Program-made: the position numbers and the translations under genes
Notes under the pieces: model-generated
What the model saw: only the letters and a program-made list of their open reading frames with translations
Told to the model about the DNA's origin: nothing
Databases searched by the model: none
Shown: positions 14,430 to 45,345 of the stretch, one piece after another
Position numbering within the stretch: position 1 is the first letter of the stretch
Layout: every line of letters starts with the position of its first letter
Origin: Prolixibacter sp.
GTDB taxonomy: Bacteria; Bacteroidota; Bacteroidia; Bacteroidales; Prolixibacteraceae
Direction: 5' to 3'
NCBI GenBank assembly: GCA_037440345.1
Contig: JBBIUJ010000002.1
Coordinates: 1-57,473, forward strand
DNA length: 57,473 nt

Positions 14430-14461
14430 AATTTCTTACCAGGAAACTGATAGACAAACAC

Positions 14462-15367
14462 ATGAAGCGAATTTCTTTATTGCTTTACATATTATCATTC
14501 TTTGCTTTTGCTGGTTCAGCGCAGGAATGGATCGTTCCAGCCGAAAACGGGGCCAAACTGAGTCCTTTCGCCTTCACAGATTCAACGCGGAAAGCAGGTG
14601 GCGATCTGTTTAACCTGAATTGCAAATCTTGTCATGGGGATCCTGGGAAAAACAATTCGGTAAAGCTTGTTCCACCTCCTCCTGATCCCGCTTCGGAAAA
14701 GATGCAGAAGAATTCGGATGGCGCTTTCTTTTATAAAGTTGCGGAAGGTCGCGGATTGATGCCCTCCTTTAAAAACACCCTTTCGGCTTCCGATACGTGG
14801 AAAATCATCTCTTATCTGAGAGGTTTCAACGATAAATATGTTCAGGAGGTTGCCAGGCAACTTGCTCCAGGTATTGCACTGGAACAAGTTAACATGCTCA
14901 TGGACTGGAACAATGAAAAGAAACAGGTTCAAGTGGCTGTTTCATCCATAAAAGAAGGAATTAGACAGCCGGTTGCAGGAGCAGAACTAAAACTTTTTGC
15001 GCGGAGGTATTTTGGCAATCTCCAGGTTGATGAGCCCAGGACGACTGATAGCAAGGGAGTAGCGCTTTTCAATTTTTCAACAACCCTGCCTGGTGATTCA
15101 ACCGGAATGGTGCAGCTTATGGTGAAACCGACCGATGAAACCGCGTTTGGCGAGACCAAGGTGGAGGCTTCCCTGAAAATTGGAGTGGCGACCTATCGGC
15201 CTCCGCTCAATGAGCGAAGGGCTTTGTGGAATGTAAATCGGAAAACACCCATATGGCTGTTGTTAACCTATACCTTTTCGGTTTTGGCAGTATGGGCGAT
15301 GATCCTCTATGTGATGCTGCAACTGAGATTGTTGTTCAAATCAGGAGAAGATAATCATCCTGAATAA
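14462..15367 (+). CDS. Membrane-anchored monoheme c-type cytochrome with an extra beta-rich domain and a C-terminal TM helix
   Basis: Signal peptide present. Single CKSCH heme motif with a downstream GLMPSF (Met ligand). C-terminal hydrophobic helix WLLLTYTFSVLAVWAMILYVML. Confidence 0.8.
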   Translation: MKRISLLLYILSFFAFAGSAQEWIVPAENGAKLSPFAFTDSTRKAGGDLFNLNCKSCHGDPGKNNSVKLVPPPPDPASEKMQKNSDGAFFYKVAEGRGLMPSFKNTLSASDTWKIISYLRGFNDKYVQEVARQLAPGIALEQVNMLMDWNNEKKQVQVAVSSIKEGIRQPVAGAELKLFARRYFGNLQVDEPRTTDSKGVALFNFSTTLPGDSTGMVQLMVKPTDETAFGETKVEASLKIGVATYRPPLNERRALWNVNRKTPIWLLLTYTFSVLAVWAMILYVMLQLRLLFKSGEDNHPE

Positions 15368-15386
15368 CAGATATTTAATTATTAAT

Positions 15387-16166
15387 ATGAGAAAAGTATA
15401 TGTGTTGGGTTTGCTCTTTCTCCTTGCTTACGAAACCCATTCACAGGCAGTTGTTAGCAAAGAGATCGAAATTGGTATCGTAGAGAAGTTGGGTCAGACG
15501 ATTCCGCTTGACCTCAAATTCTACAATGAGAAGAATGATACGGTCACCTTGCGGAGTATGATCAATAAACCTACGGTGCTCTCGTTTGTCTATTTCGATT
15601 GTCCCAATTTGTGCAGTCCTTTGCAGGATGGTATTGCGGATGTGATCGGAAAAACAGAAATGGTGCTTGGGAAAGATTATGATGTAATTACCATCAGTTT
15701 TAACACGAAAGATACTCCTGAAAAGGCCAGGGAGAAAAAGAAAAATTTTGTTCAGAAAATTAAGGAGGATCAACGGGGAAGCTGGAGTTACCTAACCGGT
15801 GAACTGGAGAATATTCAAAAAATCACTGAATCTGTTGGTTTCAGGTACAAACCTACCGGGATGGATTTTGCGCACCCTTCTACCATCATCATTCTTAGTC
15901 CGCAAGGCAAAATTACCCGTTATCTCTATGGTGTTACCTTCCTGCCGTTTGAACTGAAAATGGCTATTGTGGAGGCGCAAAAGGGAAAGGTTGAGCCGTC
16001 AAGCAACAAACTTTACGATTATTGTTTTGCCTACGATCCGCAATCCAAGACTTACACGCTGCAGTTTACCAGACTGTTGGGGAGTTTTGTTCTTGTGATC
16101 GGATTGTTCTTTGTCCTCTATTTGTACATCAGTTCTAGAAAAAAATCAAATAAAACACCAAAATAA
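15387..16166 (+). CDS. SCO1/SenC family copper chaperone
   Basis: Thioredoxin-like CPNLCSP (CxxxC) motif with a downstream His (FAHPS). A C-terminal TM is present. The stop overlaps the coxI start (TAATG). Confidence 0.85.
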   Translation: MRKVYVLGLLFLLAYETHSQAVVSKEIEIGIVEKLGQTIPLDLKFYNEKNDTVTLRSMINKPTVLSFVYFDCPNLCSPLQDGIADVIGKTEMVLGKDYDVITISFNTKDTPEKAREKKKNFVQKIKEDQRGSWSYLTGELENIQKITESVGFRYKPTGMDFAHPSTIIILSPQGKITRYLYGVTFLPFELKMAIVEAQKGKVEPSSNKLYDYCFAYDPQSKTYTLQFTRLLGSFVLVIGLFFVLYLYISSRKKSNKTPK

Positions 16167-17779
16167 TGACAAATTCATCTACCAGTGTACCACTCAACTA
16201 CCTGAATCACAAGACAGGACTTTGGTCGTGGCTAACATCAACTGATCACAAAAGGATCGGTCTGATGTACATGTATACCATTACCATCTTCTTTTGCGTA
16301 GCGGCAATATTGGGACTTTTGATGAGGATTGAGAAGATGGCCCCCGGCCAGACCATCATGACTGCCCAGACCTACAACGGAATGTTCACTATTCATGGAA
16401 TCATCATGATTTTTATTGTGGTCATTCCCGGCCTGGCCGCGGTATTTGGGAACATTTTCTTACCGATTATGATTGGAGCCAAGGATGTAGCTTTTCTGAA
16501 ACTCAACCTCTTCTCCTGGTATGTTTTCATCACCGGAGCCCTCCTTGGACTCTACTCACAATTTGCCAATGGTAACTCACCTGATACGGGCTGGACATTC
16601 TATGTTCCATACAGTGCTGCAGCTTCATCCAATGTGGTGATTGCGTTAACAGCAGCCTTTGTTTTGGGGTTTGCCTCCATTCTCACGGGTCTCAATTTTA
16701 TCGTGACCATTCACCGAATGCGGGCGCCCGGCATGACCTGGTTCAGAATGCCTTTGTTCCCATGGTCGCTCTATGCCACAGCATGGATACAGCTTCTGGC
16801 TACTCCAATCGTGGGTATTACGCTGCTTATGGTTATTGCAGAGCGAACGTTGCATATAGGTTTCTTCGATCCTGCCCTTGGTGGAGACCCGGTATTGTAC
16901 CAGCACCTGTTCTGGATCTATTCACATCCTGCCGTTTATGTCATGATATTGCCCGCGATGGGGGTCGTGACGGAAATCTTCCCGACATTCAGCCAGAAGC
17001 CGGTTTTCGGATATGTGCCCATCGTCTTTTCCAGCATGGCCATTGCCCTGGTTGGCTATTTTGTGTGGGGACACCACATGTTCACATCCGGTATCAGCTA
17101 TGAATCCAGATGGTTTTTCTCTTTCCTTACTTTTTTGGTTGCTATCCCTAGCGCCATCAAAGTATTTAACTGGCTTTCCACCATGTATGGCGGATCGGTT
17201 GACCTGAAACCACCACTTCTTTTTGCAATCTCCTTTATTTTTCTCTTTACGATCGGAGGATTCACAGGATTGACGCTTGGATCGCTTGCAACAAACATTC
17301 AGCTTCATAATACCGATTTTGTAGTAGCGCACTTTCACTATATTATTTTCGGTGGTATGGGTTTTGCCTTCTTTGCGGCCATACATTACTGGTTTCCAAA
17401 AATTTATGGCAGGATGTACAATTTCAAATGGGCTAATATCGCATGGGGATTTCTTTTTGTGGGCTTTAATCTGCTCTATTTCCCATTGTTCGTGATTGGA
17501 ATCCAGGGAATGCCGAGGCGTTACTTCGATTATGATCCAAAATTTCAGACAGGCGAGATGCTGTCGACTATTGGCGCTTTTATCCTCATCACCGGACTGA
17601 TATTAATGATCTCCAATTTGGTATACCATAGCCGTCGCGGGGCCATTGCACCAGCCAATCCCTGGCATGGCGTAACACTCGAGTGGCAAATACCATCTCC
17701 CCCTCCACACGAAAATTTCGATGAAATACCAGTGATTACGCATGAACCATACCGGTTTGATAACCCTCACACCAATTAA
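16166..17779 (+). CDS. ctaD: Cytochrome c oxidase subunit I
   Basis: Heme-copper oxidase signatures: HPAVYVMILPAMG, WGHHMFTSG (CuB His pair) and VVAHFHYIIFGG. About 12 TM helices. Confidence 0.95.
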   Translation: MTNSSTSVPLNYLNHKTGLWSWLTSTDHKRIGLMYMYTITIFFCVAAILGLLMRIEKMAPGQTIMTAQTYNGMFTIHGIIMIFIVVIPGLAAVFGNIFLPIMIGAKDVAFLKLNLFSWYVFITGALLGLYSQFANGNSPDTGWTFYVPYSAAASSNVVIALTAAFVLGFASILTGLNFIVTIHRMRAPGMTWFRMPLFPWSLYATAWIQLLATPIVGITLLMVIAERTLHIGFFDPALGGDPVLYQHLFWIYSHPAVYVMILPAMGVVTEIFPTFSQKPVFGYVPIVFSSMAIALVGYFVWGHHMFTSGISYESRWFFSFLTFLVAIPSAIKVFNWLSTMYGGSVDLKPPLLFAISFIFLFTIGGFTGLTLGSLATNIQLHNTDFVVAHFHYIIFGGMGFAFFAAIHYWFPKIYGRMYNFKWANIAWGFLFVGFNLLYFPLFVIGIQGMPRRYFDYDPKFQTGEMLSTIGAFILITGLILMISNLVYHSRRGAIAPANPWHGVTLEWQIPSPPPHENFDEIPVITHEPYRFDNPHTN

Positions 17780-17791
17780 AACGAATATTCT

Positions 17792-18403
17792 ATGTCGACA
17801 ACCGAACACAGCGAATTAATTGATAGCGATACCGGGAAACTTGGGATGTGGCTATTTCTTTTTACCGAGCTTTTTCTTTTTGGAGGATTGTTTATCGTCT
17901 ATTCAGTTATGCGCTCGAAATATGCAGCCGATTTTCACCACGCAGCTATTGAGTTGAATGCTTTTGTTGGCGCCACAAATACTGTTGTCTTACTAGTAAG
18001 TAGTATGACGGTTGCCATGTCATTGACAGCAATTCAGCATAAGCGGGGTGGCAAGGCGATGGGTTTACTCTTTATTACCCTATTATTGGCAGGTGTATTC
18101 ATGGTGAACAAATACTTTGAGTGGGGACATAAATTTGGACTCCATCTCTATCCTGGTTCAGATGTCATGAAAAGCCTTCCGCATGGCGAAATCATGTTCT
18201 TTGGTCTCTATTTCATGATGACCGGGCTGCATGCTTTGCATGTGATTATCGGTGGCGTTTTGCTTACCATCGTGATATTCAAGATAAAATCGGGTAAAAT
18301 CAGTTCTGAACACTACCTGTTGCAGGAAAACAGCGCCCTTTACTGGCACCTGGTCGATTTGATCTGGATTTTCCTCTTTCCGTTACTTTATCTGATCACC
18401 TAG
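17792..18403 (+). CDS. ctaE: Cytochrome c oxidase subunit III
   Basis: Polytopic 203-aa protein with the C-terminal LYWHLVDLIWIFLFPLLYL motif characteristic of Cox3. Confidence 0.9.
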   Translation: MSTTEHSELIDSDTGKLGMWLFLFTELFLFGGLFIVYSVMRSKYAADFHHAAIELNAFVGATNTVVLLVSSMTVAMSLTAIQHKRGGKAMGLLFITLLLAGVFMVNKYFEWGHKFGLHLYPGSDVMKSLPHGEIMFFGLYFMMTGLHALHVIIGGVLLTIVIFKIKSGKISSEHYLLQENSALYWHLVDLIWIFLFPLLYLIT

Positions 18404-18510
18404 AAGTTTCTGTTGGAACCCCGAATGCTGATTTCAGACTACTTGAGGGTGATTAGCGTCAGGGTTGCCAAATTTGTTTTTAAAGAAGTCTCATATCAAA
18501 GATATTACGA

Positions 18511-18795
18511 ATGAAGAACCATGAAAATCACGTTTCCAGCGACTCTCTGAATTGGAAAATACTAGTTATTTTGTTGATTTTAACTACAATATCGATTTTG
18601 GCCATCAAAATTCATTTGGGTGCGTTTACCGTGGCATTGGCGCTGACCCTGGCATCGATAAAAGTTACGATTGTGCTGACTTATTTTATGCACCTTAAAT
18701 TCGAAAATTTTCTACTGCGATTGATGGTTGGTTGTGTTTTCCTCCTTTTTGCCGTTGTCATCGCGATCACATTTATTGACTATTATTTCAGATAA
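18511..18795 (+). CDS. Cytochrome c oxidase subunit IV (small prokaryotic CoxIV family)
   Basis: A 94-aa, 3-TM protein located between coxIII and coxII. The call rests on context plus size and topology. Confidence 0.7.
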   Translation: MKNHENHVSSDSLNWKILVILLILTTISILAIKIHLGAFTVALALTLASIKVTIVLTYFMHLKFENFLLRLMVGCVFLLFAVVIAITFIDYYFR

Positions 18796-18806
18796 TTCCC
18801 AAAACT

Positions 18807-19742
18807 ATGGAAACACTATTCAACGAAGGTTCGAACCTGGCCGGAGCTGTCGATAGGGCTTTTATTTTCATCTTTACCATCTCGTTTATTTTTACGATTG
18901 GGATTACTGCTTTAATGATCTATATTCTGATCCATTTTTCGCGGAAGAGAAATAAAAATCCCCAACAATTTTCCCACAACACGAAACTGGAGGTAATCTG
19001 GACAGTTATCCCACTGATCATCGTTTTGGTGATGTTTTATTATGGTTGGGCCGGATTTGCCCCCATGCGGCAGGTTCCGAAAGATGCGATGCCTGTCACC
19101 GTGATCGGAAAGATGTGGAGTTGGGAATTTGACTACGGAAACGGTAAGTTATCCAAAGAACTTGTGGTTCCGTATAACAAGAATGTAAAATTGAACCTGG
19201 TATCGGTAGATGTCAACCATAGCCTGTTTATTCCTGCCTTCAGGGTAAAGGAGGATGTGATACCGGGTTACAAAAACTATCTCTGGTTCAGACCGATCAT
19301 GAAAGGGACTTTTGATGTCTATTGCACCGAATATTGCGGACTTGCCCACTCGGCCATGACGGCAAAAGCGGTAGTTGTGGATAGCCTTGAGTTCAATAAA
19401 TGGCTTGCCGACCTGAAAGTCACAGGAAATGTGCCAGACCATCCCGGGCTTGCCATCATCAAGGCCAATGCCTGCCTAACCTGCCATTCAATGGACGGAT
19501 CAAAAATCATTGGCCCCTCCTTTAAGGGATTGTTTGGTCGAAAGACAGTGGTGGTGACTGATTCTGGTGAGAAGGAGATTGAAGCGAATGGTGATTACAT
19601 TAAGAAATCAATCATCGACCCCAATGCGGATGTTGTGAAAGGTTTTAACAAAGGGCTCATGCAATCGTATAAAGAGAAAATTTCAGCAGAAGATCTGGAT
19701 AAAATTGTAGATTATTTCAAAACAGCCGGTGATACAAAGTAA
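18807..19742 (+). CDS. ctaC: Cytochrome c oxidase subunit II with a fused C-terminal cytochrome c domain (caa3-type)
   Basis: Two N-terminal TM helices. CuA site H...CTEYCGLAHSAM. C-terminal CLTCH heme c motif. Confidence 0.9.
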   Translation: METLFNEGSNLAGAVDRAFIFIFTISFIFTIGITALMIYILIHFSRKRNKNPQQFSHNTKLEVIWTVIPLIIVLVMFYYGWAGFAPMRQVPKDAMPVTVIGKMWSWEFDYGNGKLSKELVVPYNKNVKLNLVSVDVNHSLFIPAFRVKEDVIPGYKNYLWFRPIMKGTFDVYCTEYCGLAHSAMTAKAVVVDSLEFNKWLADLKVTGNVPDHPGLAIIKANACLTCHSMDGSKIIGPSFKGLFGRKTVVVTDSGEKEIEANGDYIKKSIIDPNADVVKGFNKGLMQSYKEKISAEDLDKIVDYFKTAGDTK

Positions 19743-20604
19743 GTACAAATCCGTTTTTTCTATTTTTAGCAGGTTGATCAGGGCCCGTCTCTCTATGATG
19801 GTTACCTTTTCGGCGCTGACAGGTTATTTTATGTCGGGCAGCAGGCCTGATGTATCGCTGGTTTTTCTGTTTTTCGGAATTTTCTTCCTTTCATCGGGGG
19901 CATCTGTCTTGAACCAGGTACAGGAATACAAGCAAGATGCGCTAATGAAGCGCACTGGGAAACGTCCCATTCCTGCCGGTGAAATTTCAGTCATGAATGC
20001 CTTCTTACTCTCTGTTTTTCTGATTGTTACCGGCTCTTTCTTTCTCTTGTACAATGGTTGGGTCCCGGTAATCCTGGGTCTTTTAAATGTCGTTTTTTAC
20101 AACATGATTTATACCCCGCTGAAGACCAGAAGCTGGATTGCCATCCTGCCAGGCGCCTTGGTCGGAGGAGTTCCTCCGTTAATGGGCTGGACATCGGCCG
20201 GACATTATCTCTTTCATCCAAATGCCATCTTTCTTTTTATCTTCGTTTGTCTGTGGCAGGTACCCCATTTTTGGCTCCTGATGATCAAATACGGTAAGGA
20301 GTATGAAAGGGCTGGATTCTCATCTATTTCAAAGATATTAAGCGAATTACAGATAAAGCAGGTGGTCTTTCTCTGGGGATTGATTACCTCATTGTTTCTT
20401 CTTCTTTTCCCGTTGTTCGGTTTTGTACTTCGCCCTGTTTTGATTGGTACACTGATCTTGACCAACATATATTTCATCCGCCAATTTTACAAATATCTGT
20501 TCCGGGAAACTGAAACAGGCACCATTCGCAAAGCTTTTATTTTGATCAACATGTACGCGATGGTAGTTTTCATCCAACTGGCAATCAATGCATTGATATC
20601 ATGA
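19729..20604 (+). CDS. cyoE: Protoheme IX farnesyltransferase (heme O synthase)
   Basis: UbiA-family polytopic protein (NQVQEYKQDALMKRTGKRPIP Asp-rich loop). The GTG start overlaps the coxII end by 14 nt. Confidence 0.85.
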   Translation: MIQSKYKSVFSIFSRLIRARLSMMVTFSALTGYFMSGSRPDVSLVFLFFGIFFLSSGASVLNQVQEYKQDALMKRTGKRPIPAGEISVMNAFLLSVFLIVTGSFFLLYNGWVPVILGLLNVVFYNMIYTPLKTRSWIAILPGALVGGVPPLMGWTSAGHYLFHPNAIFLFIFVCLWQVPHFWLLMIKYGKEYERAGFSSISKILSELQIKQVVFLWGLITSLFLLLFPLFGFVLRPVLIGTLILTNIYFIRQFYKYLFRETETGTIRKAFILINMYAMVVFIQLAINALIS

Positions 20605-35956: not shown

Positions 35957-36516
35957 ATTGGGATTTTCTGGATTATTGGTTTGCTGGATTATTTATAGTG
36001 AAGGGATAGTATTGGGCATCTTATTTTTGGGATGCCTTAATCTTTTTATTCCGGGGCTTCCAGCGCCAAAGTTGAGGAGCATAATCTTATAAGTTAGCTC
36101 ATCGTCAATCTTTTCATTTTCCATTCGTTGTAAAAGTTATAATGATAATGTGGCAAACTCATTTTTGATGAATAAGTTACAGAATTTCAAAGACAAAAAC
36201 GAATATTGATTATGTTATTATCATGTTGACAGCCCATAAAATTTTTTCAATTACTACAATAATTAATCCAACAATCCCCAAATCCCCCGAATCCACATGC
36301 AGACAATTGGCACATAATCAACTATATAAAATACAGATGTTTAAATATGCAACACTGTATAAAATATATACACTATTTTTAATAATCTAATATACAGCAT
36401 TATACGATAAATTCGAATATTTACTGTTGAATAAATCAACACATGCTGTGTTTAAAATTCGAACAAAATTTTTTTAAATACCTCATAGACAATTAGATAC
36501 GACATAGAAATTTTCA

Positions 36517-36531
36517 TGGCACACTTATTGA
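36517..36531 (+). promoter_or_regulatory. Candidate sigma-54 (-24/-12) promoter
   Basis: TGGCAC-ACTTA-TTGA has the correct GG-to-G spacing of 12 nt. It lies about 75 nt upstream of the ATG at 36604. The -12 element reads TTGA rather than the consensus TTGC. A sigma-54-dependent activator is encoded 6.7 kb downstream. Confidence 0.5.
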
Positions 36532-36603: not shown

Positions 36604-38301
36604 ATGAAAACAATTTCATTTTTCACCATTGGGTTGTCACTTTTGATCTCAAATCAAACGGCCTTTGCGGCAAGCGGGCCGGACAATCCTTCTGTATCTG
36701 CCGCGGTTCAATCGATGACAAATACAGCGAAGATCTCCAGTTCCCCCGAATTGTATAATCTGGCGCAGAATTGGGCCAAGGATTACAATGCAGCCAATCC
36801 GTCTTCCATGATCACTGTGGGACAGGCTGTTACGGGGAATACAGTGCAAGCTGAAACTTTATTTTTAGCTTCGGATGAAAATACTCCCGTGCTATCCAAT
36901 CCTTCGAATTGGAAAATGGTGGTTGGTAGGGATGTAATCGTTCCAATTATTTCTGCAAAGAATCCGATGCTCAGTCAGTTGGCTCAAGTCGGGTTATCTG
37001 CCGAAAAATTTGCCATGCTTTTTAAGGGTACTGAAATAAAGAAATGGTCAACGTATGTTCCGAATGGTCAGAATGTTCCAGTACAGATCTATTTACCCGA
37101 CAACCGGAATCTGCTGACTAGCCTGGAAGCTTTTACCAATTCCTCAATAGCCACAACCAGCGTAAAAAGCTTGAACTCTGCTGATGAGCTCATCTCCGCC
37201 GTTCAAAATGACATGTTTTCTATCGGTTTTTGTAAGCTAAGTGACTTAAAATCCTTGAATGTTTATAGTGAGGCAGAAAAGATCAGACTTCTGCCGATCG
37301 ACAAAAACGGCAATGGACGGCTGGACAATTTTGAAAATATTTATGGGAGCCTTGAGGAATTTACCCATGGGGTATGGATCGGTAAATACCCAAATGCTTT
37401 GTGTAATAATATCTATGCTGTTTCAGTAATAAAACCTACGCAAAAAAGCGAGGTGGCTTTCCTTTCCTGGATACTAAATGACGGACAGAAATTATTGAAT
37501 TCTAACGGATTTTGTGATTTGACGAGCAGTGAGAAGGAGTCAAACTTGGCCTCATTGGTGGGAGCAGGTGCTGATCATCCAAATTTAACTTCAATTGTTG
37601 CCTCTCCAAAAACCTGGCCGGTAATGCTGACAATCGCCGGGTTGGTCGGATTATTCCTGATTCTCTTTTTCTATAGCAAAGGCAGTACTGCTTCAGCCCC
37701 CATAGATCCACATATCCAACTTGCACCACTCATGGTTGAAAAGATTATGGATGTACCCAAAGGCCTCTACTTTGACAAAACCCACACATGGGCTTTCATG
37801 GAGCAGGATGGTAATGTCAGGGTTGGTATAGACGATTTTCTACAGCACATAACCGGGAAATTGACCAAAATTAAAATGAGGGAAGCAGGTGAGCAAGTGC
37901 GGAAAGGTGAAACAATCATGACGATCATTCAGGAAGGCAAGCAATTGAATATCTATGCTCCAATTTCCGGAACAATTCTGGAACAGAACGGATCTCTGCT
38001 CACAGACACCGGCATTATCAATACATCACCTTTCTTCAAAGGATGGGTCTACCAGATCGAACCTAAGAATTGGTTGAGAGAGGTTCAGTTCATGTTTATG
38101 GGGGATAAATATGCCGAGTGGCTCAAAGATGAATTTACCAGACTCAAGGATTTCATTGCCGCAACTGTCCGAACCAATAACCTGGTCTATGCACATGTTG
38201 TGCTTCAGGATGGGGGAGAATTAACCGACAACGTACTTGCTGAAATGGATCCAAAAGTTTGGGAAGATTTTCAGACACAATTCATTGATTCTTCCAGGTA
38301 A
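36604..38301 (+). CDS. Fusion protein: signal peptide + PstS-like periplasmic binding domain + one TM + GcvH-like (lipoyl-carrier fold) domain + conserved C-terminal extension
   Basis: PBP_like_2-type motifs (ISSSPELYNLAQNWAKDY...ITV, FSIGFCKLSDL). TM at aa 337-356. GcvH-like blocks KTHTWAF, VGIDDFLQ, QEGKQLNIYAPISG and SPFFKGWVYQIEP. Confidence 0.75.
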   Translation: MKTISFFTIGLSLLISNQTAFAASGPDNPSVSAAVQSMTNTAKISSSPELYNLAQNWAKDYNAANPSSMITVGQAVTGNTVQAETLFLASDENTPVLSNPSNWKMVVGRDVIVPIISAKNPMLSQLAQVGLSAEKFAMLFKGTEIKKWSTYVPNGQNVPVQIYLPDNRNLLTSLEAFTNSSIATTSVKSLNSADELISAVQNDMFSIGFCKLSDLKSLNVYSEAEKIRLLPIDKNGNGRLDNFENIYGSLEEFTHGVWIGKYPNALCNNIYAVSVIKPTQKSEVAFLSWILNDGQKLLNSNGFCDLTSSEKESNLASLVGAGADHPNLTSIVASPKTWPVMLTIAGLVGLFLILFFYSKGSTASAPIDPHIQLAPLMVEKIMDVPKGLYFDKTHTWAFMEQDGNVRVGIDDFLQHITGKLTKIKMREAGEQVRKGETIMTIIQEGKQLNIYAPISGTILEQNGSLLTDTGIINTSPFFKGWVYQIEPKNWLREVQFMFMGDKYAEWLKDEFTRLKDFIAATVRTNNLVYAHVVLQDGGELTDNVLAEMDPKVWEDFQTQFIDSSR

Positions 38302-38345: not shown

Positions 38346-39212
38346 ATGAATTTTGATCGACGTAATTTCTTTAAGACCGTTTGTGTTGCCGGCGCAACAC
38401 TCGCAGTGGGAAACAGTTTTGGAGCTTCGAAACCGGATGGAAATACCATAGAATTTCAAGGTGTCCTGTACGACTCAACCCGCTGCCTGGGCTGCCGGGC
38501 GTGCGAAAGGGTTTGTGCCAAGGCGCATGAACTCCCTGAACCTAAAGATGAACTAAAAGCCGGTGTTATTCGGAAAACCAGTGAAAAACAGCGCTCAGTG
38601 ATCAACAACTATGTCACTTCAAAGGGCGAAGTCTACATCAAAAAACAGTGCATGCATTGCAACGAGCCAGCTTGTGCAGCTGCCTGTCTTACCCAGGCCA
38701 TGTACAAAACCAAAGAGGGTCCTGTTGTCTGGAGAGGCAACAAATGCATGGGATGCCGGTTTTGCATGGTCTCTTGTCCGTTTGATGTGCCAAAATTTGA
38801 GTACCACAGCGCAAATCCAAAAATTGAAAAGTGCGATATGTGCTATGAACGAATAAAAGCAGGAAAAATCCCTGCTTGTTCCGAAGCATGTCCTGGTGAT
38901 GCCCTGACTTTCGGAACGAGAAGGGAGTTGATAGCCGAAGCCAGAAAGAGAATTTTTGAAAACCCCAAAGATTATGTAGATCAAATATGGGGAGAACAGG
39001 TTGCAGGAGGAACCGGCTGGCTCTACCTTTCATCTGCCCCTTTCAATGAAGTGGGATTCAATACCAAACTGCAAAACTCCTCATATCCCGAATTGTCCAA
39101 GGGATTTCTCTATGCCGTTCCTTCAGTATTTGTACTGTTACCCCCACTTTTGCTGGGTATCCACGAAGCCACAAAAAATAGAAACCACGCTAATGACGAA
39201 GAAAATGAATAA
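38346..39212 (+). CDS. Tat-exported 4x[4Fe-4S] ferredoxin subunit with a C-terminal TM anchor (HybA/DsrO/NrfC-like)
   Basis: RRNFFK Tat signal. Sixteen Cys in four groups: CLGCRACERVC, CMHCNEPACAAAC, CMGCRFCMVSCP and CDMC...CSEACP. Hydrophobic C-terminal helix. Confidence 0.85.
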   Translation: MNFDRRNFFKTVCVAGATLAVGNSFGASKPDGNTIEFQGVLYDSTRCLGCRACERVCAKAHELPEPKDELKAGVIRKTSEKQRSVINNYVTSKGEVYIKKQCMHCNEPACAAACLTQAMYKTKEGPVVWRGNKCMGCRFCMVSCPFDVPKFEYHSANPKIEKCDMCYERIKAGKIPACSEACPGDALTFGTRRELIAEARKRIFENPKDYVDQIWGEQVAGGTGWLYLSSAPFNEVGFNTKLQNSSYPELSKGFLYAVPSVFVLLPPLLLGIHEATKNRNHANDEENE

Positions 39213-40434
39213 GCAAGCTCAAACCATAGCGAAAGACAACGATGGGAGTTCCATCATTAAATTTATTTTGAGTGAATTGAAGCCCAAAGGTAGGATATTG
39301 ACTCCTTTCAACATCATTGCAATCCCAATCATCCTGCTTGGTATTGTGTTGATTGTTATAAGGTTCATGAACGGGATCGGATCCATTACCAACTTGTCAC
39401 AAGAGACTCCCTGGGGTTTGTGGATCGGATTTGATGTTGTGACAGGTGTTGCTTTTGCTGGCGGCGCTTATGTTCTCACTTTCATGGTCTATATCCTGAA
39501 GATGGAAAAATACCGTTCCATCGTTAGAGTCACGGTTCTGAATGGTTTTCTTGCCTATCTGTTTTATGCCGGCGCATTGCTGCTGGATCTTGGAAGGCCA
39601 TGGAATGTGGTCAATCCAATCATCGGCAACAGTTTTGGTACCAGTTCGGTCCTGTTTCTGGTGGCATGGCATTTCTTACTTTACATGATCGCCGAGCTTA
39701 TCGAGTTTTCACCTGCCATCGCCGAATGGCTGGGCACCAGAAGGGCCCGTAAAATTCTTTCAGGATTGACCATGGGCGCCGTTATTTTTGGTATCACCTT
39801 GTCTACTTTGCATCAATCAGGACTGGGGGCCCTATTTTTGATGGCCAAGGATAAAATCCATCCACTGTGGTATTCCGAATTTATCCCCATCATGTTTCTG
39901 GTATCCAGTATTTTTGCAGGATTATCGATGGTCATTTTTGAGGGTTCCATTAGTCACAAAGTATTCTTCAATCAGATCAGCGAGAAAAACCACAAGGCTC
40001 AGGGGGGGATACTTCAGGGATTGGCCAAGATCTGTGCCGGGGCCATGTTTGCCTACTTCTTTCTGCAACTGCTGGTTTTTATACACAGCAAAAATTGGGA
40101 TCTTATAAATACACCAATGGGTTATTGGTTCCTTTTCGAAATGATAGGTTTTGTCCTGGTCCCAATGCTGCTTTACCTGTATAGCTACCGTACCCGGAAT
40201 ATTCTCCTGATACGAGTGGCAGCCATCCTGACCATGTTGGGAATCATATTGAACAGGCTGAATATTTCAGTGATAGGTTTCAAATGGGATGCACCCGTTC
40301 ATTACTATCCATCGTGGATGGAAATTGTCGTCACCCTCACTGTAATTTTTACGGAGATATTAATATTCAGATGGATCATTCACCGCATGCCTGTGTTGAG
40401 GGACTCACCAGCCTGGGTGGAAGAGGAACATTAA
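39193..40434 (+). CDS. NrfD/HybB/DsrP/PsrC-family integral membrane quinone-interacting subunit
   Basis: About 10 predicted TM helices and a size of about 410 aa, positioned directly after the NrfC-like gene. The start is chosen at ATG 39193 (MTKKMNK), overlapping the upstream stop. The longer ORF from 39001 lies inside the FeS gene. Confidence 0.8.
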   Translation: MTKKMNKQAQTIAKDNDGSSIIKFILSELKPKGRILTPFNIIAIPIILLGIVLIVIRFMNGIGSITNLSQETPWGLWIGFDVVTGVAFAGGAYVLTFMVYILKMEKYRSIVRVTVLNGFLAYLFYAGALLLDLGRPWNVVNPIIGNSFGTSSVLFLVAWHFLLYMIAELIEFSPAIAEWLGTRRARKILSGLTMGAVIFGITLSTLHQSGLGALFLMAKDKIHPLWYSEFIPIMFLVSSIFAGLSMVIFEGSISHKVFFNQISEKNHKAQGGILQGLAKICAGAMFAYFFLQLLVFIHSKNWDLINTPMGYWFLFEMIGFVLVPMLLYLYSYRTRNILLIRVAAILTMLGIILNRLNISVIGFKWDAPVHYYPSWMEIVVTLTVIFTEILIFRWIIHRMPVLRDSPAWVEEEH

Positions 40435-40487: not shown

Positions 40488-41264
40488 ATGGACGGATTTA
40501 CTTACCACAACATTTTTGAAACGAAGGGGATAGAATATCTGGCAATTATCGCCTTCTTCGCCATCCTGATTCCATTCTGGATTATCCTGAACAGACAGGT
40601 AAGGATGACCAAACAACTACAAAAAAAATTAGGAATTCTGACTGCCAGTATGTTAAGGATCCCGCAAGGCATTTATTTTAGCAAAAATCACATGTGGACA
40701 CATCTCGACAGCAAAGGGATTGCCAAAGTCGGGGTGGATGATCTGTTGCTACACCTTACGGGAGAAGTAAAATTTAGCAGACTCAGGAAACCAGGAGAAA
40801 TTGTTAAAAAGGAGGATCTGCTCGCCGTGATCAATCACGATGGTAAACAATTAAAAATAGTATCACCCATTTCTGGGGAAATCATTTCGGCCAATACTGT
40901 GCTTCAGGATAATCCTGAAATACTCAATGAAGATCCTTACCAAAAAGGTTGGATGTACAAAATCAAGCCATCCAGATGGATAGCCGAAACGAGTACCTGC
41001 TATCTAGCTGAAGAAGCAACCGGTTGGTCGGTCAAGGAGTTGGAAAGATTCAAGGATTTTCTTGCTACTTCTGTGGAAAGATATACTCCGGAACCTTCCA
41101 ATATTATATTGCAAGATGGTGGTGAATTGATTGATCAGCCTCTTTCTGTACTACCAGAGGAAGTTTGGAAAGATTTCGAGCATAGCTTTCTTGGGACAAA
41201 ACCAACTTACCCACATTTCCGCGGATTGGAGAAGAGCGGTTACGAACCCGAGTATTTTCAATAG
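40488..41264 (+). CDS. Membrane-tethered GcvH-like protein (one N-terminal TM), paralog of the C-terminal half of 36604..38301
   Basis: TM at aa 17-35, followed by the basic stretch NRQVRMTKQLQKK. GcvH-like blocks KNHMWTH, VGVDDLLL, HDGKQLKIVSPISG and DPYQKGWMYKIKP. It shares the extension ...LQDGGEL...VWKDFE. Confidence 0.75.
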   Translation: MDGFTYHNIFETKGIEYLAIIAFFAILIPFWIILNRQVRMTKQLQKKLGILTASMLRIPQGIYFSKNHMWTHLDSKGIAKVGVDDLLLHLTGEVKFSRLRKPGEIVKKEDLLAVINHDGKQLKIVSPISGEIISANTVLQDNPEILNEDPYQKGWMYKIKPSRWIAETSTCYLAEEATGWSVKELERFKDFLATSVERYTPEPSNIILQDGGELIDQPLSVLPEEVWKDFEHSFLGTKPTYPHFRGLEKSGYEPEYFQ

Positions 41265-41320: not shown

Positions 41321-41356
41321 GAAGCGATGTGCATGCCACATCGCTTCATTTTTATT
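41321..41356 (+). terminator. Rho-independent terminator ending the 36604..41264 operon
   Basis: An 11-bp perfect stem GAAGCGATGTG/CACATCGCTTC with loop CATGC, followed by ATTTTTATT. Confidence 0.8.
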
Positions 41357-41565
41357 AGGCATTTATTCAATTCGCTCTTTAGAATGCAAACAAATATGCA
41401 AGAAAATTGAATATTTGAACCATTTTTTAAATTTTTGAGATTAACTTAGCATACAGTAACACCATATCTTTCAGGCACTTTAGCAACTTTTGAAAATGCA
41501 AGTACGCTGGTCACTTCCAAACAAAGGTTAATTGTCTGACGATTGAGTTAACATTCATTGCTACA

Positions 41566-43236
41566 ATGAGTTGGATACATAGAATATCGAAAGGTAACAA
41601 AGTTGGGGCCCCCATCTTAAACAGTTATGTGAAATTTCGTTCCTCCATTTATGGAAGGGTAGTTGTAATAATTACTATCTCCTCCTTTTTTCTCTTTTTG
41701 TCGTTTGGCGTTATCTTCCGCTCAGTCAATGAGAATTACATGAAGTCTGTCATTCGGGAGAGCGGGAACAACATCGGAGTCCTGGTGGAAGGCGCTTTAT
41801 ATCGGTCGATGCTGGAAAATGACAGGACTGCCTTGCAGGGTACGCTGGATATCATCAATACCATGTCGGGGATCGATGATGTAAACATGTACGACAACAA
41901 AAATAACCTGGTTTACTCCTCCATTGCAAACGATACTACCAATCACAGCGATCCTGATTGTATATCCTGTCACAAAAATTTTGCAACCATGTTCTCTTCC
42001 ACTGATAAATCCTACAAAATTATCGGGATTGACAGTGAATGCAGCATGAACCATAACAACAACAATTGCAGGCATCTGTTGATAAAATCACCGATTCGCA
42101 ATGACAAATCGTGCTATACCAGTGCCTGTCATGCTCATAGTGAAAACGACAAAGTTCTTGGTTCATTGATTATTAAGATTCCTCTTTCAGGTTTGGACGC
42201 TGCTTTGCAGAAATCCACCACCGATTATTTTTTTCTGGCTGCATTGCTTACCTTTTTGTTAATTCTCTTTTTAATATTCTTTACCCGAAAGAAAATTAAG
42301 AATCCGTTGAATGCAATTATTAAAGCAAGTTTGGCTGTTGCCGGAGGCGACAGGAGTACCAGGCTCGAAGTTAAACCCCACCAGTTATCAGATATGAGAA
42401 TGGTGTCGGTTGCTTTCAATGAGATGCTTGACAACCTGCAGACAGCCACCAATGAGTTGCAAAACTGGTCGCAACAACTCGAATATAAAGTGCAGAAGAA
42501 GTCTGAGGAGCTTGGGCAGGCACAAAATGAACTTATCAATGTCGAAAGGATCGCTTCGCTGGGCAAATTGTCACTTTCCGTAGCGCACGAAATCAACAAT
42601 CCCCTTTCCGGAATATTGATTTATGCAAAATTGGTGTACGAACAACTTGGTAACCAGGATATTGATCCGGCTAAAAAGGAATTGATGCTCAAACATCTGA
42701 AACTCATTGAAAATGAGACCAAGCGGTGTGGTGATATCGTCAAGGGGTTGCTTGATTTTTCGAGAAAAAACCAGGATGGTTTCGAGCAAAAACACCTTCA
42801 TGAAATATTGAATGAAACCTTTGAATTGATGTCACATCCGATGAAGATTGCCAATGTCCATTTCATTTCGGATTTTTCGGCCAAACCGGATCTGATCTAT
42901 TGTAGTCCTAACCAGATCAAGCAGGCCTGTATTGGGATTTTGGTCAATGCATCGGAAGCTGTTTCTGAGAACGGGGAAGTTCTCTTCAGGACGCTGAACC
43001 CGGATGCAGATCATATCCGCATTGAGATATCCGACAATGGTGTGGGAATCAATGAGGAGGATATTTCCCATATTTTTGAACCGTTCTTTTCTACCAAACA
43101 GAATGCCAGCGGTATAGGTCTTGGATTGGCAATCGTTCATGGAATCGTTCAGAACCACAAAGGAAAAGCAGATGTAAAATCAGAAAGAGGCAAGGGTACG
43201 ACAATTTCACTGACACTACCTCTTATCAGGAATTAA
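41566..43236 (+). CDS. Sensor histidine kinase with a Cys-rich periplasmic domain carrying a CxxCH heme-c motif; HAMP, HisKA and HATPase domains
   Basis: Two TM helices (aa ~31-51 and ~221-240) bracket a domain with CISCH (aa 132-136), C159/C168 and CYTSACH (aa 183-189). H-box [12 protein letters not shown]-boxes DNGVGI and GIGLGL. Confidence 0.85.
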
Positions 43237-43248
43237 TGTTTATATAGT

Positions 43249-44589
43249 ATGGCCAAAAAAATTTCAATTTTAATTGTTGACGATGAGGAATCGGTAAGGG
43301 ATTCGTTGTACAACTGGTTCATAGAAGATGGTTATTATGTCGAATGTGCCGAAAATGCAAAAAAAGCCCTCACAATTCTTCAGTCCGACAGCTTCAACAT
43401 CGTACTGGCAGACATCAAAATGCCCGGTATGGATGGCCTGGAAATGTTAAAACGCATCAAGGCCTTGAAAAGCGACGCCATTGTCATTATCATGACCGCC
43501 TTCGCTACGGTAGATACAGCAGTGCAGGCCCTAAAAGACGGTGCATATGACTATGTGACGAAGCCGTTCGATCCGGACGATCTTTCCCATTTGATCAGGA
43601 ATGCCTCCAAGCAAATATCCCTGATCGAAGAGAATGAGATTTTGAAAGACAAAGTTATTTCGCTCGAAAATGTGGAAGATATGGTGGGCCACAGCGAAGC
43701 CATGCTGGAGGTATTCAGGCAAATTGAGAGTGTAGCGCAATCCAATGCTTCCGTGATTATCACCGGCGAAAGCGGTACTGGTAAAGAGCTTGTAGCGAAA
43801 GCCATACACGCCAATTCACCGCGCAAATTCTTTCCGATGGTAAGCGTTCATTGTGGTGCATTGACTGAAAGTCTACTCGAAAGTGAACTGTTCGGACATG
43901 AAAAGGGGGCATTTACAGGTGCCGTCTACAACAGAAAAGGCCGGTTCGAAATGGCCGACAGCGGTACAATTTTTTTGGATGAAATTGCCACCATCTCTCC
44001 AAAAATGCAGGTGGAACTTTTGCGTGTGCTGGAGACGAAAAGCTTTGTCAGGGTTGGCGGAAACAAGGAGATTAGTTCCGATTTCAGGGTACTGTGTGCC
44101 ACCAACAGGGATTTAAAGGGTTTGGTTGAGAAAGGTTTGTTCCGTGAAGACCTTTTTTATCGGCTCAATGTGGTAAATATCAATATACCACCATTGCGGG
44201 AACGGGTGGAGGATATTCCTTTGCTGATCGATTATTTTATCAAGAAGTATTGCAGTTCAATGAACAGGCCCATTGTCACCATTGAACCTGCTGCGTTGCA
44301 TCGCATGGAGACATATACCTATCCCGGGAATATCCGTGAACTCGAAAATATGATCGAGCGCGCCATTGTTATTGGAAATGGAAAGAAGATCATGCTGAGG
44401 GATCTTCCACTGATGAAGGAGCGAAGCCAACCAACCTTTGAGAGCCTGGATGACCTTGGCAAAAAGCACATTCTTCAGATACTTAACAAATACAGCTGGA
44501 ACATAACAGTTTCGGCCAAGGCATTGAAACTCGACAGGGTTACACTGTACAACAAGATTAAGAAATATGGTCTGACGCCACCAAAATGA
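43249..44589 (+). CDS. Sigma-54-dependent response regulator (NtrC/AtoC family: REC + AAA+ + Fis-type HTH)
   Basis: Receiver DDEE...LADIKMPGMDG, Walker A GESGTGKE, sigma-54 contact loop GAFTGA, and a C-terminal HTH. Confidence 0.92.
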   Translation: MAKKISILIVDDEESVRDSLYNWFIEDGYYVECAENAKKALTILQSDSFNIVLADIKMPGMDGLEMLKRIKALKSDAIVIIMTAFATVDTAVQALKDGAYDYVTKPFDPDDLSHLIRNASKQISLIEENEILKDKVISLENVEDMVGHSEAMLEVFRQIESVAQSNASVIITGESGTGKELVAKAIHANSPRKFFPMVSVHCGALTESLLESELFGHEKGAFTGAVYNRKGRFEMADSGTIFLDEIATISPKMQVELLRVLETKSFVRVGGNKEISSDFRVLCATNRDLKGLVEKGLFREDLFYRLNVVNINIPPLRERVEDIPLLIDYFIKKYCSSMNRPIVTIEPAALHRMETYTYPGNIRELENMIERAIVIGNGKKIMLRDLPLMKERSQPTFESLDDLGKKHILQILNKYSWNITVSAKALKLDRVTLYNKIKKYGLTPPK

Positions 44590-44808: not shown

Positions 44809-45345
44809 ATGAAGCTGGAAAAAATCAAATTGATCTCCTTTGGATATTTTGAGAAGGGCCTTCTTGATAAAGTAGTTAAGAATGTGGAACATGAATTTCA
44901 ACTTCCTGTCAAAACAAAGGAGGGTCATCTGGATCTCAGCCTATTTTATGATCCTGCCCGACGGCAGTATGATGGATTCAGGTTACTGAAAGAGATCGAT
45001 TCCGGTTTTGCCAAAGAGACAAACAAAACCCTCGGACTTTTCAATGTTGATCTCTATATTCCCATATTAACCTACATATTTGGGCAGGCATATCTGAACG
45101 GTCGAACCGGAATCGCTTCGATCTACCGATTGAGAAACGAACGGTATGGTATCTTCAAAGACGAGAAAATACTGGTGGAACGATTTCGAAAAGAGGTCAT
45201 ACACGAGCTAGGCCATACCTTTGGATTGATCCACTGCCATGACCCTTCGTGTGTGATGCGGTCGAGCACCTATGTTGAAGACATCGATCAAAAAGAACAT
45301 CAGTTATGCCGCCATTGCAAAGAGAAACTGACCATTCACACCTGA
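44809..45345 (+). CDS. amzA: Archaemetzincin-type zinc metalloprotease (peptidase M54-like)
   Basis: HELGHTFGLIHCHDPSCVMRSS...CRHC matches the archaemetzincin signature HExxHxxGxxHCxxxxCxM plus the terminal CxxC. Confidence 0.8.
   Translation: MKLEKIKLISFGYFEKGLLDKVVKNVEHEFQLPVKTKEGHLDLSLFYDPARRQYDGFRLLKEIDSGFAKETNKTLGLFNVDLYIPILTYIFGQAYLNGRTGIASIYRLRNERYGIFKDEKILVERFRKEVIHELGHTFGLIHCHDPSCVMRSSTYVEDIDQKEHQLCRHCKEKLTIHT

Follow-up and report, generated by a model that had tools for sequence, protein, structure and literature searches.

Relatives of the glycine cleavage H-protein, GcvH (PF01597, TIGR00527), are usually read as carriers of lipoate. GcvH itself is a soluble protein of ~130 aa that is linked to gcvT and gcvP. 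Unmodified lipoyl, or barrel-sandwich-hybrid, domains serve as structural or packing modules in the membrane fusion proteins of the AcrA/HlyD type (PF25917). In addition, two groups of GcvH relatives have roles outside glycine metabolism. The LbpA proteins of the sHdr system of sulfur oxidation are GcvH paralogues from an energy-metabolism cluster, two per cluster (LbpA1/LbpA2), which have a strictly conserved lysine and two cysteines in 95 of 95 sequences and genes for LplA-like ligases nearby; they indicate that a relative of GcvH may need a ligase of its own, of a kind missing from E. coli (PMC6067878). The GcvH-L proteins of Streptococcus pyogenes and Staphylococcus aureus (PDB 5a35) have a divergent GcvH fold and are described, in a passage of PMC12440151, as soluble lipoic acid carrier proteins, and in a passage of PMC11490716 as partners of a SirTM/macrodomain ADP-ribosylation pair.

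We analysed a 57,473-nucleotide stretch of DNA from Prolixibacter sp. (the window) that encodes two further GcvH relatives, here called A565 and B258, within a unit of seven genes (Table 1). Public annotation names them "glycine cleavage system protein H", and this name is very probably incorrect for the family, which comprises at least ~270 clusters at 50% identity. Whereas GcvH is small and soluble, A565 and B258 are anchored by TM helices, bear extra domains and have no link to gcvT or gcvP. We propose that their GcvH-like domains are ancient paralogous "pseudo-H-protein" domains, and we hold with moderate confidence that they act as unmodified docking or adaptor domains of an uncharacterised membrane redox or signalling module. 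Full-text literature searches found no paper on GcvH-type proteins with NrfD/HybA/Hmc modules or on this cluster, and "GcvH" occurs 0 times in the full text of a review of the NrfD family (PMC8076601).

Table 1. Features of the A565/B258 gene cluster, with positions in the window.
Feature	Position	Strand	Basis or remark
sigma54-type -24/-12 element TGGCACACTTATTGA	36517..36531	+	pattern search; 73 nt upstream of A565 start codon
A565, long paralogue, 565 aa	36604..38301	+	ORF; GCV_H 388-509 (Pfam)
EF-hand-like / DxDxDG-type loop D233-K-N-G-N-G-R-L-D-N-F-E244 of A565 periplasmic domain	37300..37335	+	
GcvH-fold core of A565 (residues 383-509)	37750..38130	+	Pfam, AF2, Foldseek
K446 of A565 (AAG)	37939..37941	+	one residue past canonical lipoyl-Lys column (G445)
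C-terminal extension of A565 (510-565; RLKDF, LQDGGEL, VWEDFQ)	38131..38298	+	paralogue alignment, family conservation
HmcB/HybA-like periplasmic four-[4Fe-4S] protein	38346..39212	+	NCBIfam, Pfam Fer4_11, four Cys clusters
HmcC/HybB-like NrfD-family membrane subunit, 413 aa from ATG at 39193	39193..40434	+	NCBIfam, Pfam NrfD
B258, short paralogue, 258 aa	40488..41264	+	ORF, Pfam, AF2, Foldseek
GcvH-fold core of B258 (residues 57-185)	40656..41042	+	phmmer, hhalign, AF2, Foldseek
K120 of B258 (AAA)	40845..40847	+	G119 fills canonical Lys column
C-terminal extension of B258 (residues 186-236)	41043..41195	+	paralogue alignment, family conservation
Terminator-like hairpin, 11-bp stem, 6 GC pairs, and T-run	41321..41357	+	closes four-gene operon
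Histidine kinase	41566..43236	+	Pfam HAMP, HisKA, HATPase_c
CISCH motif, kinase periplasmic domain	41959..41973	+	
CYTSACH motif, kinase periplasmic domain	42112..42132	+	
sigma54-dependent response regulator (REC-AAA+-HTH_8)	43249..44589	+	Pfam, NCBIfam
Archaemetzincin-like protein (peptidase M54), last gene of cluster, conserved	44809..45345	+	Pfam M54

Both proteins passed the threshold of Pfam GCV_H (84.2 and 82.7 bits; cutoff 22.2) and scored below the equivalog cutoffs of TIGR00527 (67.8 and 74.5 bits; cutoff 115.85) and NF002270 (85.0 and 84.1 bits; cutoff 117). Identity to GcvH was ~30%, gapless over 107 residues, and the motifs HxW, VGxxD, PxSG and DPYxxGW were kept. The AF2 models (pLDDT 84.6 for B258 and 82.2 for A565) aligned with solved H-proteins in Foldseek at TMt 0.82–0.95 and rmsd 1.1–2.3 Å overall, with TMt 0.82–0.91 for the B258 model and TMt 0.94 and rmsd 1.1–1.3 for the GcvH domain of A565. 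Based on these models, both domains keep a confidently predicted, intact GcvH (barrel-sandwich) fold. The GcvH-L structure (PDB 5a35) was also matched by the B258 model (E 1.8e-5, TMt 0.83, identity 12%); no SirTM or macrodomain genes are present at the A565/B258 locus.

The paralogues align with one another without a gap (B258 50-238 with A565 376-564; 35% identity, 60% positives, E 9e-47 by BLASTP). The motif pairs common to both include KNHMW/KTHTW, VGVDDLL/VGIDDFL, DGKQLKIVSPISG/EGKQLNIYAPISG and DPYQKGWMYKIKP/SPFFKGWVYQIEP, followed beyond the core by RFKDFLATSV/RLKDFIAATV, ILQDGGEL/VLQDGGEL and VWKDFE/VWEDFQ. A block-for-block likeness of the two proteins had been described in a sequence-only reading of this DNA, and its coordinates and listed blocks were all confirmed, with two flanking letters slightly off. 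That reading had also proposed that the extension is private to the pair. The extension, a conserved stretch of ~50 residues that GcvH does not have, showed ~50% conservation from paralogue to paralogue versus 47% for the core, and W164, E184, G211, G212 and W227 of B258 are invariant. Comparison with Pfam, a check which the same reading had suggested, found no relative of the extension even at E<=10. No counterpart was found in the PDB, where Foldseek alignments with GcvH covered ~125–134 columns only, and a profile of the extension run against a set of 5.8 billion proteins matched short same-family fragments only and revealed no new architecture. Together with the paralogue alignment, the missing Pfam match and the family-only profile matches supported the proposal. 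In the A565 model the LQDGG loop (533-537) had pLDDT below 50, as would be expected for a loop that binds a partner.

The sequence-only reading had also placed a lysine at the lipoyl hairpin of each domain, with the Pro of PxSG following 7 residues later, versus 8 in E. coli GcvH. Both codons and both distances proved correct, that of E. coli GcvH (AESVKAASDIYAPVSG) in an alignment with PDB 3a8i_E. In phmmer alignments with four solved H-proteins the canonical Lys column fell on G119 of B258 with K120 at +1, and hhalign gave the same register (family profile 57-163 with E. coli GcvH 2-108, gapless). The hairpin turn of B258 is D118-G119 in the DSSP string of the AF2 model, and the E-S/T-V-K-A (ESVK) context of GcvH has been lost. 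Glycine occupied the canonical column in 275 of 276 long forms (99.6%) and 210 of 234 short forms. At the shifted position, lysine was found in 272 of the 276 long forms (98.6%) and arginine in the other four (1.4%), while 201 of the 234 short forms (86%) had lysine and 33 (14%) had a replacement (R 14, N 11, I 6, H 1, Q 1). Short forms with His (P0143) or Gln (P0133) sit within intact clusters, and the clusters at loci L009, L010 and L035 are likewise intact with a short form that lacks the lysine.

Conservation of the lysine among orthologues, by which the sequence-only reading had proposed to judge its role, therefore broke down for the short paralogue. That reading had left three options for the domains (lipoylated, otherwise modified, or unmodified and docking), among which the shift and replacement of the lysine favour docking. 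No conserved cysteine was found among the conserved columns of the short-form or long-form alignments. Genes for lipoate ligase or synthase, gcvT/P and hdr were absent from the 57-kb window and from the recurrent flank genes of 62 loci. Because the lysine is shifted and variable, and conserved cysteines, ligase genes and gcvT/P are missing nearby, it is unlikely that lipoylation of these domains is obligatory, and for the short form this is clear. In the long form, the near-invariant Gly-Lys may nevertheless be modified; its near-invariance exceeds the needs of a structural turn and could mark a modification or a catalytic contact. Biotinylation was rejected since the MKM motif is absent, and thiol chemistry was rejected since there is no conserved cysteine.

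The A565 and B258 genes bracket the hmcB-like and hmcC-like genes in an operon flanked by terminators. Of 48 related loci, 39 had a TGGCAY-N5-TTGA/C/T element in the 300 nt that precede the A565 orthologue, where base odds predict ~0.003 per locus. The HmcB-like protein has a Tat signal (RRNFFK), four FeS motifs and a C-terminal TM anchor at 254-272, and a TM scan identified 10 hydrophobic segments in the HmcC-like subunit. In these traits the pair resembles HmcBC, NhcBC and HybAB, modules of an iron-sulfur and an NrfD subunit that interact with quinones, with HmcB/HmcC nearest and HybA/HybB next. However, the scores reached none of the equivalog cutoffs (HmcB 312 bits, cutoff 420; HybA 218, cutoff 263; HmcC 410, cutoff 550; HybB 255, cutoff 450), and the genes are relatives, not equivalogs. 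A periplasmic partner of catalytic or cytochrome type is also missing: neither the seven genes nor the regions flanking them encode an HmcA/NhcA or HybOC-type subunit, and the cluster has no gene for HmcE/F or for a hydrogenase or molybdoenzyme as partner.

A565 has a signal peptide (1-22), a periplasmic PstS-like domain (~40-320) and a TM helix (338-360) ahead of its GcvH-like domain and extension (383-565). Its periplasmic domain matched PstS proteins in Foldseek (TMt 0.57-0.75), with a weak PBP_like_2 match in Pfam. In 59 sequences, D233 and E244 of its EF-hand-like loop were invariant and N235, N237, G238 and D241 were >=90% conserved, a motif from which calcium binding might be expected. 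B258 begins with a conserved motif, MDGFTYHNIFETKGIEY, and a TM helix (together residues 1-36), followed by a linker, and after the GcvH-like domain and extension it ends in a lineage-specific disordered tail (237-258). The GcvH-like domains of both proteins are cytoplasmic and each is held by one TM helix. For A565 this is supported by the signal peptide, the PstS-like domain and the single TM helix; for B258 it is supported by the positive-inside charges after its TM helix and by P0135, a natural fusion that has a PstS-like domain ahead of the N-terminal motif seen in B258. Some family members bear a precomputed PF25917 match. The AcrA/HlyD domains, however, are periplasmic, function in efflux or secretion and are split by a coiled-coil hairpin, whereas those of A565 and B258 are cytoplasmic and of the full GcvH type.

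The histidine kinase downstream of the operon has its periplasmic domain between TM 32-50 and TM 222-240, for which no Pfam or PDB relative was found. CxxCH and Cx4CH were present in 53 of 53 kinase orthologues, and these are the only c-haem motifs of the cluster; based on them, the domain would bind haem. The arrangement recurs in ~90 Bacteroidota loci. The order A565-hmcB-hmcC-B258-HK-RR-M54 was kept in essentially all of 62 genome loci and, among 27 metagenome loci of sufficient length, in 23; it also surrounds an orthologue of 37% identity. A scan of metagenomes with the long form recovered close relatives only and no remote variant accompanied by a catalytic partner. The family also draws attention to a seven-gene unit of anaerobic and subsurface Bacteroidota that is tightly conserved and wholly uncharacterised. 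In this unit an orphan quinone module of the HmcBC type occurs together with a sensor kinase that is probably haem-based, a sigma54 activator and a bacterial archaemetzincin.

In the docking reading that we favour, the turn of the lipoyl-lysine would have been remodelled so that a tight (D/N/E)-Gly pair leads into a residue that is mostly basic, and the conserved extension (RFKDF ... LQDGGE ... VWxDFQ) would be an elongation of the C-terminal helix. In a four-protein module, A565-HmcB-HmcC-B258, the two domains would pair and make up the cytoplasmic face, with the extension and its exposed invariant LQDGGE loop as the interaction surface and the N-terminal motif and TM helix of B258 as the intramembrane contact. 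Their partner may be HmcC/HmcB or the kinase and regulator. A565 would couple its periplasmic PstS-like, EF-hand-loop domain physically to the cytoplasmic pair. The module would be transcribed from the sigma54 promoter, probably under the control of the adjacent kinase, with its two haem-c motifs, and the sigma54 activator. As unmodified adaptors, these domains would be a case of the full GcvH fold re-used for interaction at a membrane to which it is tethered.

A possible, though rather unlikely, alternative is that the proteins are accessories of signal transduction: A565 would be a one-pass receptor that binds a ligand through its periplasmic PstS-like, EF-hand-loop domain and whose pseudo-GcvH domain acts on the kinase or the sigma54 activator, B258 a partner or competitor without a sensor, and HmcBC a regulated cargo and not a docking partner. 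TorT/TorS and AioX/AioS are binding-protein co-sensor systems to which such an arrangement can be likened. The receptor-like architecture of A565, the resemblance of the kinase itself to a periplasmic redox sensor and the nearly universal HK-RR-M54 linkage are consistent with this alternative, as are two variant loci. In L003 hmcBC is cleanly deleted and A565, B258 and the two-component system are kept; in L109 A565 lies directly upstream of HK-RR-M54 with hmcB, hmcC and B258 all absent. Since both retain A565 beside the kinase, they suggest that the partner is the two-component system and not HmcBC. However, loci L111 and L142 have the four-gene operon with no two-component system adjacent, and the variant loci each stand on one metagenomic contig, which could reflect decay or misassembly. 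In addition, hmcBC lies between the two genes within a single sigma54 operon that a strong terminator separates from the kinase, and the invariant N-terminal motif and TM helix of B258 suggest a membrane-embedded partner.

We consider it unlikely, but worth stating, that the seven genes form an undescribed membrane redox-signalling device whose parts are joined by a cytoplasmic pseudo-H-protein heterodimer. In such a device, the HmcBC-type quinone module and the periplasmic PstS-like, calcium-loop receptor would be coupled to the kinase, sigma54 activator and archaemetzincin, and the near-invariant Gly-Lys of the long form would make a functional contact or carry a modification other than lipoylation. 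If this were correct, the GcvH fold would have gained a signalling role separate from cofactor carriage.

It is improbable that the domains are genuine acyl or lipoyl carriers, in which a ligase encoded elsewhere attaches a lipoyl, other acyl or swinging-arm group to the shifted lysine (at least K446) for redox or substrate shuttling at the cytoplasmic face of the membrane complex. The coincidence of near-invariant lysine and glycine in the long form, the canonical motifs and the cytoplasmic location, where lipoylation enzymes act, are compatible with a carrier, and the LbpA proteins provide a precedent for GcvH relatives with special ligases. However, LbpA is soluble, with its lysine and two cysteines strict, and adjoins hdr-like and ligase genes, whereas here the lysine is shifted and variable, a conserved cysteine is absent and the neighbours are the HmcB/C-like, HK, RR and M54 genes only; an LbpA-style ligase, if any, would have to lie elsewhere. 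A lysine adjacent to the target position of a lipoyl domain escapes lipoylation, according to a passage of PMC6270654 that summarises Wallis & Perham 1994, a precedent drawn from the lipoyl domains of E2 and from enzymes of E. coli, not from H-proteins or Bacteroidota ligases. According to the review cited above (PMC8076601), NrfD-type subunits have no cofactor through which electrons could reach the cytoplasmic side, and a cytoplasmic redox enzyme is missing from the cluster.

The M54 gene occurs in nearly all loci, and its product is a clear archaemetzincin homologue (E 4e-24 with PDB 2x7m). Its strict co-occurrence with the cluster and the invariant LQDGG loop, flexible in the model, would suit a regulatory circuit in which the archaemetzincin cuts the pseudo-GcvH proteins, at the LQDGGE loop or the linker, and so frees or inactivates the cytoplasmic domain; we regard this as highly improbable, since the link is one of association, archaemetzincins have to our knowledge no established substrate or function, and the ~25 residues after the loop are conserved, which argues against a discarded fragment. 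A ubiquitin- or Pup-like reading, in which the diglycine of LQDGGE would be exposed by the M54 protein and ligated to the hairpin lysine, was set aside: LQDGGE lies inside the chain with conserved residues after it, and nothing resembling a ligase gene is present.

The sequence was absent from RNA runs and present in DNA metagenomes only, from subsurface, groundwater and freshwater. One carrier of the cluster, Gaoshiqia hydrogeniformans Z1-71 (locus L049), is cultured, which makes these questions open to experiment.

The long paralogue A565 (565 aa, residues 376-564) and the short paralogue B258 (258 aa, residues 50-238) aligned without gaps at 35% identity and 60% positives (BLASTP, E 9e-47), and every motif block quoted for the pair by an earlier, sequence-only reading was found in both proteins, confirming their paralogy. 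Both scored above the Pfam GCV_H threshold of 22.2 bits (84.2 and 82.7) and well under the NCBIfam GcvH cutoffs. B258 aligned without gaps to the Thermus, E. coli and pea H-proteins of solved structure (phmmer), and a profile of 45 family sequences gave a gapless match to E. coli GcvH (hhalign, 57-163 against 2-108, probability 99.3%). The GcvH-like domains are homologues of GcvH. An exhaustive representative search returned 271 clusters at 50% identity (E below 1e-30). In public annotation the short form appears as "glycine cleavage system protein H"; long-form entries are named "GcvH/phosphate-binding protein" or are hypothetical. The sequencing runs that contained the sequence were DNA metagenomes (subsurface, groundwater, freshwater), and no RNA run contained it. 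A full-text literature search returned no account of this cluster, nor of GcvH-type proteins occurring together with NrfD/Hmc/Hyb modules.

Coordinates of features in the window and in related loci
Feature	Position	Strand	Remarks
Terminator-like hairpin	36014..36037		one side of four-gene operon
Sigma54-type -24/-12 element	36517..36531		TGGCACACTTATTGA; 73 nt upstream of A565
A565	36604..38301	+	ORF, 565 aa
EF-hand-like loop, A565 residues 233-244	37300..37335		D-K-N-G-N-G-R-L-D-N-F-E; perfect match
K446 of A565	37939..37941		AAG; 7 residues before Pro of PxSG
HmcB/HybA-like gene	38346..39212		Tat-exported four-cluster ferredoxin, C-terminal anchor
HmcC/HybB-like gene	39193 (probable start)..40434		NrfD family, 10 hydrophobic segments
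B258	40488..41264	+	ORF, 258 aa
K120 of B258	40845..40847		AAA; 7 residues before Pro of PxSG
B258 tail, residues 237-258	41196..41261		TKPTYPHFRGLEKSGYEPEYFQ; disordered in model
Terminator-like hairpin	41321..41347		other side of four-gene operon
Histidine kinase	41566..43236		haem-c motifs at 41959..41973 and 42112..42132
Archaemetzincin (peptidase M54), bacterial	44809..45345		E 4e-24 to PDB 2x7m
Respiratory cluster	13470..20604		upstream, separate
Deletion site in L003	L003 5868..5909		equivalent to window 38358..40397
Variant cluster in L109	L109 8906..14309		
Chemotaxis protein gene in L064	L064 12308..14026		

Structural statements on the two proteins are based on the secondary structure and confidence of AF2 models. 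In the B258 model (pLDDT 84.6), a long predicted helix containing the TM segment (residues 9-48) precedes a GcvH core at ~57-185. In this core, D118-G119 would form a two-residue turn between hairpin strands 111-117 and 120-125. The C-terminal helix (175-199) is lengthened, and the LQDGGE loop and short helices to residue 234 are predicted to follow it. The tail beyond these was lineage-specific, being present in the closest relatives only (255-258-aa forms) and absent from forms of ~235-240 aa. Foldseek matched B258 to solved H-proteins over ~125-134 columns (TMt 0.82-0.91, rmsd 1.3-2.3 Å). The A565 model (pLDDT 82.2) starts with a signal peptide and a periplasmic domain, followed by a single TM helix (338-360); the GcvH core and extension seen in B258 come last, with the LQDGG loop below pLDDT 50. 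Its C-terminal domain resembled the E. coli H-protein (TMt 0.94, rmsd 1.1-1.3 Å), and its periplasmic domain resembled PstS-type phosphate-binding proteins (TMt 0.57-0.75, 12-16% identity).

The signal peptide, binding-protein domain and single TM helix of A565 put its GcvH-like domain on the cytoplasmic side. The same side is indicated for that of B258 by the five positive charges that follow its TM helix and by P0135, a natural 454-aa fusion; here a PstS-like periplasmic domain comes directly before an N-terminal motif and TM helix of the B258 type, which lead into the GcvH-like domain. This fusion shows a periplasmic N-terminus for the short form. Shorter, non-PstS N-terminal domains were carried by P0207 (320 aa) and by a 334-aa protein in locus L066. 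The N-terminal motif and TM helix of B258 were nearly invariant, which suggests that it may have a specific membrane-embedded partner. The EF-hand-like loop in the PstS-like domain of A565, invariant or nearly so in 59 homologues, may bind calcium. The usual Ser/Thr-Gly phosphate-binding motifs of PstS were not evident by eye in this domain, and its ligand may therefore not be phosphate.

Between the paralogues, the ~50-residue C-terminal extension and the core were equally conserved (~50% versus ~47% identity, 52 loci), and W164, E184, G211, G212 and W227 were invariant in both. It had no match in Pfam to E<=10 and no structural match by Foldseek with the B258 model, and an extension-only profile recovered solely fragments of this family; within the reach of these searches, its initial description as private was justified.

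The A565 and B258 genes flank the HmcB/HybA-like and HmcC/HybB-like genes (hmcBC), whose products scored under the equivalog cutoffs. A sigma54-type element (TGGCAY-N5-TTGA/C/T) preceded the A565 orthologue in 39 of 48 related loci; in the window its -12 part reads TTGA, not TTGC, within a 650-bp AT-rich intergenic region. Downstream of the operon are genes for a histidine kinase, a sigma54-dependent response regulator and an archaemetzincin homologue, the last of which is conserved as the closing gene in nearly all loci. The ~170-residue periplasmic domain of the kinase, between two TM helices, had no Pfam or PDB relative; all of the 53 orthologues had CxxCH and Cx4CH in it, pointing to a sensor that would bind two c-type haems.

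This seven-gene order was kept in virtually all of the 62 genome loci, every one of them labelled Bacteroidota and most of them Prolixibacteraceae or relatives, in 23 of 27 metagenome loci of sufficient length, and around an orthologue with 37% identity; the flanks held no further conserved gene. There were informative variants. A clean ~2.04-kb deletion in L003, a Tangfeifania MAG, removed hmcBC only and left the other five genes intact. In L109 the kinase, regulator and archaemetzincin genes directly followed A565, without hmcBC and B258; in L135 this three-gene unit was inverted; and L111 and L142 had the four-gene operon without the adjacent two-component system. These variants indicated that the operon and the three-gene unit are separable modules, almost always kept together. 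In L064, with the most divergent intact cluster examined (short form 37% identity), the adjoining gene encodes a methyl-accepting chemotaxis protein, unusual in Bacteroidota; the range of the cluster may therefore reach into another phylum.

The reading we favour, with conviction and doubt about evenly balanced, is that these domains serve in docking or as adaptors and are not modified. Their nearest functional analogy is the lipoyl-type domain of membrane fusion proteins, which is unmodified. Two paralogous GcvH-fold domains would be tethered at the cytoplasmic membrane face, with the shared extension and the exposed, invariant LQDGGE loop as the interaction surface of both, and would join HmcBC in a four-protein module, which the redox-sensing kinase and activator encoded next to it would induce through sigma54. 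We infer every protein contact in this scheme, as well as the regulation by the two-component system. Its main rival, in which the kinase or regulator receives a signal from the domains and HmcBC is not their docking partner, draws support from L003 and L109 but is opposed by the operon structure and by L111 and L142, and we consider it rather less probable.

A genuine acyl or lipoyl carrier, served by a ligase encoded elsewhere, would have the hairpin lysine as its modification site. The sequence-only reading had counted 7 residues from this lysine to the Pro of PxSG, against 8 in E. coli GcvH; both values were correct, the E. coli chain reading AESVKAASDIYAPVSG in the phmmer alignment. In the hhalign alignment the lipoyl-lysine column fell on G119 of B258, with K120 at +1. 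Loss of the lysine among orthologues, the outcome that was to count against that reading, was seen in the short form. Among all non-redundant sequences gathered, long forms had Lys in 272 of 276 (R in 4), with Gly at the position before it in 275, whereas short forms had Lys in only 201 of 234 (R 14, N 11, I 6, H 1, Q 1), with Gly at the position before it in 210. The short-form substitutions were spread across several lineages, some in proteins 70-77% identical to B258, and occurred within intact clusters (L009, L010, L035, P0143 with His and P0133 with Gln). In contrast, the strictly conserved Lys was kept in 95/95 LbpAs, bona fide lipoate carriers, examined by Cao et al. (PMC6067878). In the lipoyl domain mutagenesis described in section 4.2 of PMC6270654, a Lys put beside the target position was not lipoylated. 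Neither paralogue has a conserved Cys, and lipoate ligase or synthase, gcvT/P and hdr genes were absent from the window and not recurrent in the flanks of related loci. Together, these data speak against obligatory lipoylation, which is very unlikely in the short paralogue and also unlikely in its long counterpart. The pair differs from GcvH in lysine column, lysine invariance, equivalog score, solubility and gcvTP linkage, and likewise departs from the defining features of LbpA. In addition, NrfD-type subunits are described in PMC8076601 as having no redox cofactors; on that description, electrons of the periplasmic FeS protein could not reach the cytoplasmic domains, which makes it still harder to see them as redox carriers. 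In the long form, Gly-Lys is nearly invariant; this conserved functional feature is the chief point for a carrier role, which we nevertheless regard as improbable relative to unmodified docking domains.

Processing of the pseudo-GcvH proteins by the archaemetzincin, a family with, to our knowledge, no established substrate, has genomic association as its one basis and is highly improbable.

The respiratory cluster elsewhere in the window encodes a 4Fe-4S protein, cytochrome c, SCO1/SenC, COX1, COX3, COX2 and a UbiA-family (haem O synthase-like) protein, and the organism therefore probably also has an aerobic terminal oxidase.
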